A stretch of DNA of 23,946 nucleotides from Oscillatoria sp. HE19RPO. Its GTDB lineage: Bacteria; Cyanobacteriota; Cyanobacteriia; Cyanobacteriales; Laspinemataceae. The notes below the pieces were generated by a model. It was not told the DNA's origin, did no database searches, and worked only from the letters and a program-made list of their open reading frames with translations. Of the stretch, positions 1,316 to 3,793 are shown piece after piece (the first letter of the stretch is position 1; each line of letters starts with the position of its first letter). The stretch covers positions 1 to 23,946 of the forward strand of contig NZ_JAMXOT010000326.1 in the NCBI RefSeq assembly GCF_024220515.1, read 5' to 3'. The position numbers were made by a program, and so were the translations under genes.

Positions 1316-2383
1316 TTGTCCCAAATTGATGGGGCGATCGCCGCCAATGGCAGCGCCAATTTATTTTTAATTAATCCCAGTGGCATTGCCTTCGGACCGA
1401 ATGCGACCCTAAATCTAGGGGGTTCCTTTGTCGGGAGTACCGCCAACAGGGTGTTATTTCCTGGCGATCGCGCCTTTAGTGCCACGGACCCTGATTCATC
1501 GCCAATTTTGAGCGTAAATGTCCCCATCGGGTTGCAATACGGACCGAATCCCGAGAGCATTGTTGTGCGGGATGCGGTCTTAACTGTGCTGCCAAATCAA
1601 TCTTTAACCTGGGTTGGGGGTGAGATTACCCTGGAGGGGGGACAATTATTGGCCCCCGGTGGGACGGTGAGTTTGGGGGGGATATCCGAGGCGGGAGTGG
1701 TGGAATTACCCGGAGGAAATGCCCTCAAACTGCGGGACACCATCGGGCGATCGCCACTCACTCTCACCAATGGGGCGCGAGTGGATGTGGCAGGGTCAGG
1801 GGGTGGAAGTATCTCGATTCAGGTGGATAATCTGCTGATTTCTGGTCAGTCTGAGATTCGCGGGGGGATTGCCGAAGGGTTAGGAGAACCGGGTGCACAA
1901 GCAGGAGATATCGACATTGATACCCGGGGAAATATTGTGCTAACGGGAGAGAGTGCGATCGCCAATGAAGTCCAACCCACGGGAATGGGAGATGGGGGAA
2001 ATATCACTTTAAATACCAACAGCTTTTCCGCAACCCGTTCAATGATTTCTACTAGCACATCGGGAGAAGGGAATGGGGGAAAACTGCAAATTACCGCCCG
2101 AGACTCGGTGGTATTTGATGGACAAGGCACAGAGGATTTCATCACCATCGCCTCGGCAGATGTAGCACCCGGAGGGGTCGGAAATGCAGGAGGCATCGAG
2201 ATTCAGGCGCGTTCTGTGTTGGTCAAAGATGGCGCGGGCATGAGCACGGGAACCCGGGGTCGGGGGAATGGTGCACCCCTAGTCATTCGCGCCGTAGAGT
2301 CGGTGGTTTTTGATGGAGTGAATTCCAGTAACGATGTGCTAAGGGTGTTCCAACAAATAAATCATCCAAATCCCGATGGTTAA
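1316..2383 (+). CDS. TpsA-like exoprotein, middle fragment (rest of TPS domain plus Gly-rich beta-helix repeats)
   Basis: ANLFLINPSGIAFGPNATLNLGGSF and repeated GNGG/GxGG hemagglutinin-type repeats. Ends with a stop codon supplied by the inserted element (…VFQQINHPNPDG*). Confidence 0.6.
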   Translation: MSQIDGAIAANGSANLFLINPSGIAFGPNATLNLGGSFVGSTANRVLFPGDRAFSATDPDSSPILSVNVPIGLQYGPNPESIVVRDAVLTVLPNQSLTWVGGEITLEGGQLLAPGGTVSLGGISEAGVVELPGGNALKLRDTIGRSPLTLTNGARVDVAGSGGGSISIQVDNLLISGQSEIRGGIAEGLGEPGAQAGDIDIDTRGNIVLTGESAIANEVQPTGMGDGGNITLNTNSFSATRSMISTSTSGEGNGGKLQITARDSVVFDGQGTEDFITIASADVAPGGVGNAGGIEIQARSVLVKDGAGMSTGTRGRGNGAPLVIRAVESVVFDGVNSSNDVLRVFQQINHPNPDG

Positions 2384-2479
2384 GCATCTAACTATATTAG
2401 CCCGCGCAGGCGGGCTTTGTCCGTGTAGCCCCACCCTTAAGGGTGCGGGTTTTTTGGGGATTTTATTTTTTGGAGTTCC
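2343..2479 (+). mobile_element. MITE-like ~137 bp element (copy A) inserted into the TpsA-like gene
   Basis: Shares TTCCAACAAATAAATCATCC, TATATTAGCCCGCGCAGGC, CCCCACCCTTAAGGGTGCGGGTTTTTTGG and ATTTTATTTTTTGGAGTTCCC with a second copy at 13575..13720. The termini are imperfect inverted repeats: left GGGTGTTCCAACAAATAAA, right reverse-complement GGAACTCCAAAAAATAAAA. It has an internal hairpin (CACCC TTAA GGGTG) followed by a T-run. There is a possible 4-bp target duplication CTAA (2339-2342 and 2480-2483). Confidence 0.55.
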
Positions 2480-2482
2480 CTA

Positions 2483-3793
2483 ATGCCGACGGGGGCGGAA
2501 AGTACCGTAGACCCCGAGGCAATGGGAAAGGCGGGAAGTTTAGAGCTTGAGACGGCAGCATTACGGATTCTAAATGGGGCGAATGTGGGCAGTATGACCT
2601 TTGAGGCGGGGAATGGAGGTCCTGTGAGATTACAGGCAACGGAGGTGATGGAATTTGGAGGAGTCGATCGCCTGGGCAATCCGGTGATTGTGTTTAGTGA
2701 TACGTTGGGAGAGGGGAATGGGGATAATTTACGGATTGAAACCCCGAGGTTGATTTTGCGCGATGGTGCCCAGATTAGTGTGGGTACATTTGGCGCGGGG
2801 GATGGGGGAAATTTGGAGATTCTGGCAACGGAGGCGATTGTGTTATCTGGTTCAGTTCCGGCAACGGAGGGCGGATTTTTCTTCACCGATGAGTCTGGAA
2901 TGGTTTTCCCTACAGGCATTTTTGCTGCTTCTACACAGACGGGGAATGCGGGGACAATGCAGTTAGAGACGGGAGAGTTAATGTTAGGCGATCGCGCGAT
3001 TATTTCCGCCAGTGGTGAGAGTACGGGGGTTGCTGGGAATATGGAAATCGTGGCGCGACAGATTCTGGTTAATAATGCGGCGATCGCCGCTGAAACGGTG
3101 CAGGGGGACCAGGCGAATATTTTCATTGAATCGCGGGATATCCGGTTGCGGAATCAAGGGGGAATTACCACCAATGCCAGTGGGAGTGGGACGGGAGGGA
3201 ATATTGCGATCGCCACGGATACGTTAGTTGCCGTAGAAAATAGCGATATTACGGCCAATTCCAGCGCTAGTTTTGGGGGTCGCGTGGCGATCGCTGCCCA
3301 AGGCATCTTGGGGACTGATTTTCGCACAGAAATCACCCCTCAAAGTGATATTACTGCCACCTCCGAACTTGGGGCGGAGTTTAGCGGCAGTGTCACCATT
3401 AATACCCCCGATGTCAATCCCTCTACTGGATTGGTGCAATTACCCGAAATGCTGGTGCAAGCGAGGGATAATTACTTTGTCGGTTGTGCCTTATCCGATG
3501 AGAATTCTTTTACTATTTCTGGACGAGGAGGATTGCCCACCGATCCGACTCAACCCCTCCAAACCCAACCGATTTGGCATGATTTACGCAACTTTTTCCA
3601 AGAGTTAGAGGAGGAACCCGTTACCCTTGCCCCCCCTGGTACCCCTTCCTCTGAAAATTCATCTCCCCGACTCAAGGAAGCGACAGGTTGGCGACAAAAT
3701 TCTCAAGGAACCATTGAATTAATTACGGCAATACCCGAGGGAAGTATTTCTTTTTCCGGGTTGCGATCGCCGGACTGTCAACCCATTGAATAA
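2483..3793 (+). CDS. TpsA-like exoprotein, C-terminal fragment
   Basis: Same frame as the upstream fragments. Continues the GNGG repeat architecture. No signal peptide of its own. Ends with the GRGGLPTDPT region. Confidence 0.6.
   Translation: MPTGAESTVDPEAMGKAGSLELETAALRILNGANVGSMTFEAGNGGPVRLQATEVMEFGGVDRLGNPVIVFSDTLGEGNGDNLRIETPRLILRDGAQISVGTFGAGDGGNLEILATEAIVLSGSVPATEGGFFFTDESGMVFPTGIFAASTQTGNAGTMQLETGELMLGDRAIISASGESTGVAGNMEIVARQILVNNAAIAAETVQGDQANIFIESRDIRLRNQGGITTNASGSGTGGNIAIATDTLVAVENSDITANSSASFGGRVAIAAQGILGTDFRTEITPQSDITATSELGAEFSGSVTINTPDVNPSTGLVQLPEMLVQARDNYFVGCALSDENSFTISGRGGLPTDPTQPLQTQPIWHDLRNFFQELEEEPVTLAPPGTPSSENSSPRLKEATGWRQNSQGTIELITAIPEGSISFSGLRSPDCQPIE

Follow-up and report, generated by a model that had tools for sequence, protein, structure and literature searches.

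A probable miniature inverted-repeat transposable element with ISAzo13-type ends in a decaying tpsA-like gene of Oscillatoria sp. HE19RPO

Near the start of a 23,946-nucleotide contig of Oscillatoria sp. HE19RPO (NZ_JAMXOT010000326.1; this whole stretch is called the window here), a tpsA-like gene, of the kind that encodes two-partner-secretion (TPS) exoproteins, is interrupted by a short non-coding segment (copy A), a second copy of which (copy B) lies elsewhere in the window. What is this segment, and what carried it into the gene? [quoted passage not shown] Comparison with other genomes indicates that copy A is very probably a MITE bearing the ends of cyanobacterial ISAzo13-family insertion sequences (ISs), and a member of a family of Laspinema/Oscillatoria. 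Elements of this kind are well known (compare Nezha and ISNpu3), and only the particular Laspinema family is new. The parts of the two copies are as follows.

2343 to 2480, plus strand: MITE copy A, inserted in tpsA; 138 bp, non-coding.
2343 to 2367, plus strand: left terminal inverted repeat, GGGTGTTCCAACAAATAAATCATCC.
2456 to 2480, minus strand: right terminal inverted repeat, minus-strand reading GGGAACTCCAAAAAATAAAATCCCC.
2340 to 2342, no strand: target-site duplication, left copy, TAA; recognized from the single TAA in a relative (L054) and from the flanks of the family.
2481 to 2483, no strand: target-site duplication, right copy, TAA; recognized in the same way.
2399 to 2416, plus strand: core hairpin 1, AGCCCGC-GCAG-GCGGGCT, from folding and covariation.
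2429 to 2455, plus strand: core hairpin 2, CCCCACCC-TTAA-GGGTGCGG, then TTTTTT, from folding and covariation.
13574 to 13720, plus strand: MITE copy B; 147 bp, apparently intergenic.

Copies A and B can be aligned from end to end, and the similarity stops at both outer boundaries. They are 80% identical overall, with 24/25 matches at the left end and 93% identity in a 54-nt right block, which agrees with the earlier claim of conserved blocks above 90%. Of the end motifs, both the 18-mer and the 21-mer are found at two places in the window and no others, where shuffled sequences predict 0.03 and 0.00. Copy A has the termini GGGTGTTCC...GGAGTTCCC (also written GGGTGTTCCAACAAATAAATC...GATTTTATTTTTTGGAGTTCCC), and the ends follow the pattern GGG[T/A]NNTCCAA[A/C]AAATAAA... 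over about 22-25 bp (end sequence GGGTATTCCAACAAATAAA). As had been proposed, the terminal inverted repeats are imperfect. The arms of copy A (2342-2370 and 2453-2481) are 29 nt long with 72% complementarity, or 17/25 in the terminal 25 nt, while those of copy B are 25 nt long with 80% complementarity; inverted repeats are kept in all family copies recovered. Copy A contains no open reading frame (ORF) as long as 60 aa. ORFs that stay within the element are no longer than about 35 aa, and the longer ones listed there extend out into the flanking tpsA. Copy A folds far more stably than shuffled controls, with z-scores of -5.1 for RNA and -3.0 for DNA. The internal hairpin and T-run named in the original prediction are present: the hairpin CACCCTTAAGGGTG with its T-run, on the plus strand and thus in the sense of tpsA, scored terminator-like; hairpin 2 and the T-run may act as an intrinsic terminator.

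Several other identities were considered for copy A. Rfam, searched with the whole window at gathering thresholds and with the element at E <=10, returned a single match in the element, to CRISPR-DR28 (RF01356; 24 nt, 2398-2421, hairpin 1 only, 37.3 bits, the threshold being 35). Since there is one repeat only and no direct-repeat array at the site, a CRISPR identity for hairpin 1 was dropped. A palindrome-associated element (PATE) derived from IS200/IS605 was rejected, as copy A has inverted repeats and 3-bp duplications and its two hairpins lie in the middle rather than subterminally at each end. An in-frame translated palindromic element, like the Rickettsia RPE, was also rejected, since copy A contains three in-frame stops.

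The unoccupied site is preserved in a close relative. A 1.08-Mb ENA contig (L054) encodes the closest relative protein (P0002, 97% identical) and is about 95% identical to the window. Window positions 978-2344 correspond to 4642-6009 of this contig and positions 2480-6972 to 6004-10503, so that the two blocks overlap by 6 bp with no element between them. Where the relative reads GATGTGCTAAGGCCC, the window reads GATGTGCTAA, then the element, then TAATGCC; with longer flanks, ...AACGATGTGCTAAGGCCCACGGGG in the relative corresponds to ...AACGATGTGCTAA, 138 bp and TAATGCCGACGGGG in the window. TAA is present once at the insertion point in the relative and twice in the window. The original prediction had given the duplication as CTAA, and this tetranucleotide does occur at 2339-2342 and 2480-2483. 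However, all elements of the family run from GGG to CCC, as does the ISAzo13-family IS described below; thus the C is part of the element, and what was duplicated is the 3-bp TAA alone.

The ends of copy A recur well beyond this window. A scan of viral contigs with an 18-mer gave 26 single matches on unrelated contigs, which were judged to be chance hits of an AT-rich word, and a longer word was therefore chosen for the genomes. This left-end 20-mer (TTCCAACAAATAAATCATCC) matched at least 25 stretches in a collection of species-representative genomes. Among the matches listed, 21/25 stretches were in genomes of the Laspinema/Oscillatoria clade, namely Oscillatoria sp. S11.Bin022, Laspinema olomoucense, L. 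palackyanum, Phormidium pseudopriestleyi and two related metagenome-assembled genomes (MAGs); at least 15 contigs of the MAG S11.Bin022 hold the exact 20-mer. Nearly all clade stretches extracted have the same architecture. Matches in Nostoc were rejected, as no right end is paired with them and the genes beside them are ordinary ones that do not encode transposases, and those in Lishizhenia and Flavobacteriaceae were rejected as chance. Metagenomes scanned with the flank of the tpsA junction gave 0 matches, and with the right-end 21-mer a single match on an unrelated contig, also judged to be chance.

Counting copy A and 18 copies with paired ends, the family has at least 19 complete members of 96-238 bp, all below the limit of about 300 bp for MITEs, and not just the two known from the window, and every one starts with GGG and finishes with CCC. 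The flanking 3 bp are identical in 14/19 copies (10 TAA, 2 TTA, 1 TGA and, in copy B, 1 TTG, at 13571-13573 and 13721-13723), with TAA or TTA accounting for 12/14; the chance of such identity is about 1/64 per copy. The consensus ends are GGGTATTCCAACAAATAAATC...GATTTTATTTTTTGGAGTTCCC, and the duplication has the form TNA. Three of the copies, from different loci of two genomes (L030, L033 and L039), do not differ from each other and share 92% identity with copy A, which argues for recent activity of the family. Together with the insertion polymorphism between strains about 95% identical, this suggests that the family has recently been active. Interiors vary more than ends. At 96 bp, the shortest copy (L047) has both ends but no hairpin 1, and other MITE subfamilies in Laspinema loci combine the same ends and TAA flanks with different interiors. 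In one group of copies (L031; L033, 6358-6547; L034, 3826-4063) a tandem repeat of GCCTGCCCTGAGC[C/T]AGTCGAAG stands in place of hairpin 1, and in another group (L029, L035 and L053) an insert of about 24 nt lies within the loop of hairpin 2.

Which transposase could recognize these ends? Plasmids were searched with 32-nt end probes, short queries being needed to reveal the match in the inverted repeats, and the right-end motif was found on many cyanobacterial plasmids. On plasmid NC_019700.1 of O. acuminata PCC 6304 it adjoins an annotated ISAzo13-family transposase gene. The IS there, about 1.3 kb long, reads TAA, GGGAGTTCCAAAAAATAAAATC...GATTTATTTTTTGGGACTCCC, TAA, and its end matches the first 22 nt of the right inverted repeat of the MITE at 20/22 positions, with the same termini and the same TAA duplication. 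Homologues of the transposase (PF07592, DDE_Tnp_ISAZ013) include one in L. palackyanum, where the IS (JAMXFD010000029) reads TAG, GGGATTTCCAGAAAATAAATTC...GATTTTATTTTGTGGAACTCCC, TAG, its ends being also given as GGGATTTCCAGAAAATAAATTC...GTGGAACTCCC; its right end matches the MITE at 19/22 positions. Metagenome copies related to the latter IS have TTA/TTA flanks, and a more distant ISAzo13-family IS in Nostoc PCC 7120 has the ends GAGAACTCCACAAAAAAG. In L. palackyanum, MITE copies (L047 and L050) were recovered from strain D2a and the ISAzo13-family IS (L061) from assembly GCA_025370875.1. The ISs and the MITE have in common GGG...CCC termini, nearly identical 22-bp inverted repeats and TNA duplications (TAA, TAG and TTA for the ISs; TAA, TTA and TGA for the MITE), from which an ISAzo13-type MITE was concluded. 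The two differ in that the ISs, at about 1.3 kb, encode a 407-aa transposase, whereas the MITE shares only their ends of about 22 bp. As no subterminal similarity is seen, the MITE is no simple internal-deletion derivative of either sequenced IS.

An IS of another family lies in the window itself, immediately upstream of the same gene.

1 to 977, plus strand: IS5-family IS (ISMae4/IS702-like), cut by the contig start; right end ...GCAAGAGGTC.

Its transposase matches Pfam DDE_Tnp_4 and NCBIfam transpos_IS5_4, with ISMae4, ISCysp19 and IS702 as the closest named relatives. Next to the right end comes TAA (978-980), which shares sequence with the ATG of tpsA. This IS is also absent from the relative L054, where its target reads tctgTAAtgata (tctgTAAtgat). 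That copy A was derived from, or mobilized by, this element is improbable, though its insertion at TAA in the same gene region and the loose likeness of its end (GACCTCTTGCAAAAAAATC) to the MITE end (GGGAACTCCAAAAAATAAAATC) both favour such an origin. The two ends can be aligned only with a 3-nt gap, and they do not agree in their terminal bases (GA... against GGGA...), for which the IS5-family IS was rejected as a partner; the ends of IS702 and ISMae4, which read (A)GAACTCTTGCAAA, likewise need a 3-nt gap. The ISAzo13-family ends, by contrast, match without gaps at 19-20/22 positions and have GGG...CCC termini in common with the MITE. Further, the IS5-family transposase was found in none of the 25 MITE-bearing loci listed. 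An ISAzo13-family IS is thus the likely partner rather than the neighbouring IS5-family element, as judged from these alignments.

If copy A is an ISAzo13-type MITE, its arrival may be pictured as follows. The MITE encodes nothing and would move only by means of a transposase that is made elsewhere and recognizes its ends. A DDE transposase of the ISAzo13 family would bind both ends and cut at the GGG and CCC termini, presumably in a cut-and-paste reaction. For integration, a TNA trinucleotide (mostly TAA or TTA) would be cut with a stagger of 3 nt, and repair would then double it. In HE19RPO one copy landed on the TAA that spans the tpsA codons CTA-ATG, adding 141 bp and bringing into the gene both stops from 2381 onwards and the sense-oriented hairpin and T-run.

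A number of observations count against this account. Flanks are non-identical in 5/19 copies, and two of the duplications, TTG (copy B) and TGA, deviate from TWA. No ISAzo13 transposase is found within the 24-kb window, and the adjacent IS5-family IS likewise makes a TAA duplication. The inverted repeats of the MITE match those of known ISs inexactly, at 17-20 of 21-22 positions, and the likeness is confined to the ends, with no subterminal similarity. To our knowledge, ISAzo13 transposition has never been studied biochemically or experimentally, and the mechanism suggested above is an extrapolation from DDE elements.

The interior of copy A raises a separate question, as its 55-nt double-hairpin core (2399-2455) also occurs in other settings. 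The core consists of AGCCCGC-GCAG-GCGGGCT, a 12-nt linker and CCCCACCC-TTNA-GGGTGCGG, often followed by a T-run. When the whole element was compared with plasmids by BLASTN, only these central 55 nt were matched, on two Gloeothece plasmids (L001, 1500-1556; L002, 1395-1584), and in Gloeothece PCC 7822 the core lies inside another element with 24-nt inverted repeats. In the Laspinema loci (L029-L053) the core linker was found 42 times, about half of them outside ISAzo13-type ends. Many of these outside copies lie within a second repeat with terminal inverted repeats, whose ends are ATACCAAATCCGGTTGT...ACAACCGGATTCCGTAT (for example, L036, 2680-2830; L040, 7000-7130; L041, 4100-4230). Covariation was measured in 27 copies picked to fit one register: 97.8% of cells were paired, and four pairs showed compensatory changes. 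The score was reached by 0/500 shuffles, and slid controls were far lower, although selection and relatedness of the copies somewhat inflate these figures; the signal is weaker within the MITE family alone. It is possible, if tentative, that the core is an independent, structurally constrained module that was repeatedly acquired by, or inserts into, unrelated MITE families. If true, the core may be a portable intrinsic terminator, a small RNA or a very small mobile element itself, and MITEs of the cyanobacteria concerned would carry shared functional or selfish cargo instead of being plain deletion derivatives of ISs.

A stronger version would make the core the true mobile or selected unit, the outer inverted repeats being incidental and copy A no classical MITE; the core would then resemble a repetitive extragenic palindrome (REP), an IS200/IS605 end, or a small-RNA or terminator module. 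That the core is about as frequent outside the MITE inverted repeats as inside, is found in the second Laspinema family and, with different flanks, on the Gloeothece plasmids, and shows compensatory changes in both stems speaks for it. Nevertheless, it is very unlikely. The 3-bp duplications sit precisely outside the GGG...CCC termini, the whole 138 bp and one TAA are gone from the empty site, the 96-bp copy has both ends without hairpin 1, and other subfamilies carry unrelated cores between the same ends. Thus, the ends rather than the core define the unit that moved here, and the identification of copy A as a MITE is unchanged by the core.

The interrupted gene had itself been damaged in other ways.

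980 to 3793, plus strand: tpsA-like (two-partner-secretion exoprotein) pseudogene; one frame, broken by a TGA and by the MITE.
1298 to 1300, plus strand: in-frame TGA (NIIT*ITGG) inside a conserved TPS motif; CGA (Arg, NIITRITGG) in the relative L054.

Only this TGA and copy A interrupt frame 2, which is otherwise open from 872 to 3793, and the ORFs 872-1300, 1316-2383 and 2483-3793 are all in it; the probable start of tpsA is the ATG at 980. The TGA divides the Pfam TPS domain: one ORF covers profile positions 1-65 and the following ORF 73-251. It may be a nonsense mutation or a sequencing error. The stops within copy A begin at 2381-2383 and truncate tpsA, as originally proposed. The earlier view that the ORFs on either side of copy A are halves of one gene was also borne out. 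With the junction excised by computation and used as a protein query, cyanobacterial proteins with a TPS domain were retrieved in hundreds; they are about 800-850 aa long, have 95-100% query coverage and align without a break over NSSNDVL|MPTGAEST, hence no natural gene boundary lies here. The ATG at the junction is made of the last A of the right TAA duplication and TG from the target, and it opens ORF 2483-3793. The right inverted repeat supplies a GGAG 7 nt upstream of this ATG, and the two together account for the annotation of the 436-aa fragment as a gene of its own. From what is established on two-partner secretion, a C-terminal fragment that lacks the TPS domain is not expected to be secreted. 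The two 'S-layer family protein' ORFs in the record are pieces of one dead tpsA gene.

Given the TGA, the IS at the start codon and the MITE, tpsA is a pseudogene that precise excision could not restore. The halves do share a frame, as the prediction of in-frame excision required, but the gene would remain broken by the TGA and the IS5-family IS; on this ground a phase-variation reading was rejected. The MITE jumped into a gene that was already decaying. In the relative L054, the tpsA orthologue carries one extra base pair (within 5935-5945), upstream of the empty site by about 70 bp, and codon 11 of its longest frame is TAG. These may be real lesions or assembly errors, and the gene may be decaying independently in both lineages. 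The multiple-of-3 size of the insertion, stressed in the original prediction, is real at 141 bp but without meaning: length plus 3 falls into the residue classes modulo 3 as 6, 6 and 7 in the 19 copies, an even spread by which the 141 bp is coincidental and selection on length is rejected. That copy A is no transposon at all but an in-frame functional module, a gene-splitting or phase-variation switch or a natural intergenic spacer is scarcely credible, since the 141 bp (47 codons), the common frame of the two ORFs and the junction ATG with its GGAG are outweighed by in-frame stops within copy A, family lengths without a multiple-of-3 bias, homologues that are single genes through the insertion site, a nonsense codon and an IS at the start that excision could not undo, and the fact that, when empty sites were rebuilt and spanning frames sought, none of the 19 copies but copy A lay within a long ORF.

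MITEs have been documented in cyanobacteria before, including Nezha with ISNpu3, the MaeMITEs and the insertions in Anabaena mcy (PMC3184786, PMC10969869, PMC3049150). Nezha, in Anabaena variabilis and Nostoc PCC 7120, was proposed by Zhou and colleagues (2008) to be moved by ISNpu3-like transposases (PMC3184786, PMC3049150). As summarized there, Nezha resembles the present family in being cyanobacterial, non-coding and about 130-170 bp long (copy A is 138 bp), in having inverted and direct repeats in common with a resident IS and a stable fold, and in that recent mobility was inferred in both from filled and empty orthologous sites (PMC3184786, PMC3049150). It differs in its host, which is of the Nostocales rather than the Oscillatoriales; the comparison is with the published description. 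A plasmid of A. variabilis ATCC 29413 carries an inverted repeat of the MITE type (GGGACTTCCAAAAAATAAAAT), and a superfamily link with Nezha is plausible from this likeness. Inactivation of cyanobacterial genes by MITEs has been reported for Anabaena mcy (Fewer et al., 2011) and for the MaeMITEs of Microcystis (Kaneko et al., 2007) (PMC3184786, PMC10969869). As described there, coding genes of natural strains were disrupted and the insertions were polymorphic between close relatives, as they are here, although the MITE families and targets are others and the present tpsA was also inactivated independently. SPRITE likewise is a small dispersed repeat with a GC-rich core hairpin followed by a T-run, and could terminate transcription where inserted; it is unrelated in host and sequence and is not defined by IS-type inverted repeats and duplications. 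A literature search found no account of transposable elements in Laspinema, and no description of MITEs was found in the ISAzo13 literature examined.

The result leaves the current understanding of MITEs unchanged. With the consensus ends and the TNA duplication, these repeats can be masked or annotated in Laspinema/Oscillatoria assemblies, in which they probably contribute to contig breaks. In addition, a MITE family linked to ISAzo13-family ISs offers a compact substrate-plus-transposase system for experimental work.

Other repeats and features were seen in the window. Just downstream of a gene for a PEP-utilizing enzyme, positions 11663-12010 hold inverted-repeat arms of 84 nt with 92% complementarity, 180 nt apart, which could be another, larger MITE-like element. 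At 23599-23946, a tandem array of three 65-nt units gives way to a head-to-tail array of 26-nt units (GGCGGGGGTTTTAAGTTGCAACAACC), at least five in number, which continues past the contig end; single copies related to these repeats lie at 11632-11664, 12052-12075 and 23540-23572. Two families of short perfect palindromes occur at 18187-18242 and 21601-21663, and at 18583-18640 and 21671-21730 (GTAGGGTGGGCAATGCCCACC...; AAATGTAGAGGCGATTCGCGAATCGCCTCTACATTT), and the same palindromes flank MITE copies of other Laspinema genomes (L039 and L043). On the minus strand at 21968-22254, an Rfam match to 5_ureB_sRNA (84 bits), antisense within ORF 21813-23546, probably reflects conservation of the urease coding sequence and not a cyanobacterial small RNA. 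Finally, a 12-nt tandem repeat (ACTCCCACAGAY) of about 14 or more units at 19662-19888, within ORF 19536-21494, encodes a Thr-Pro-Thr-Asp repeat.

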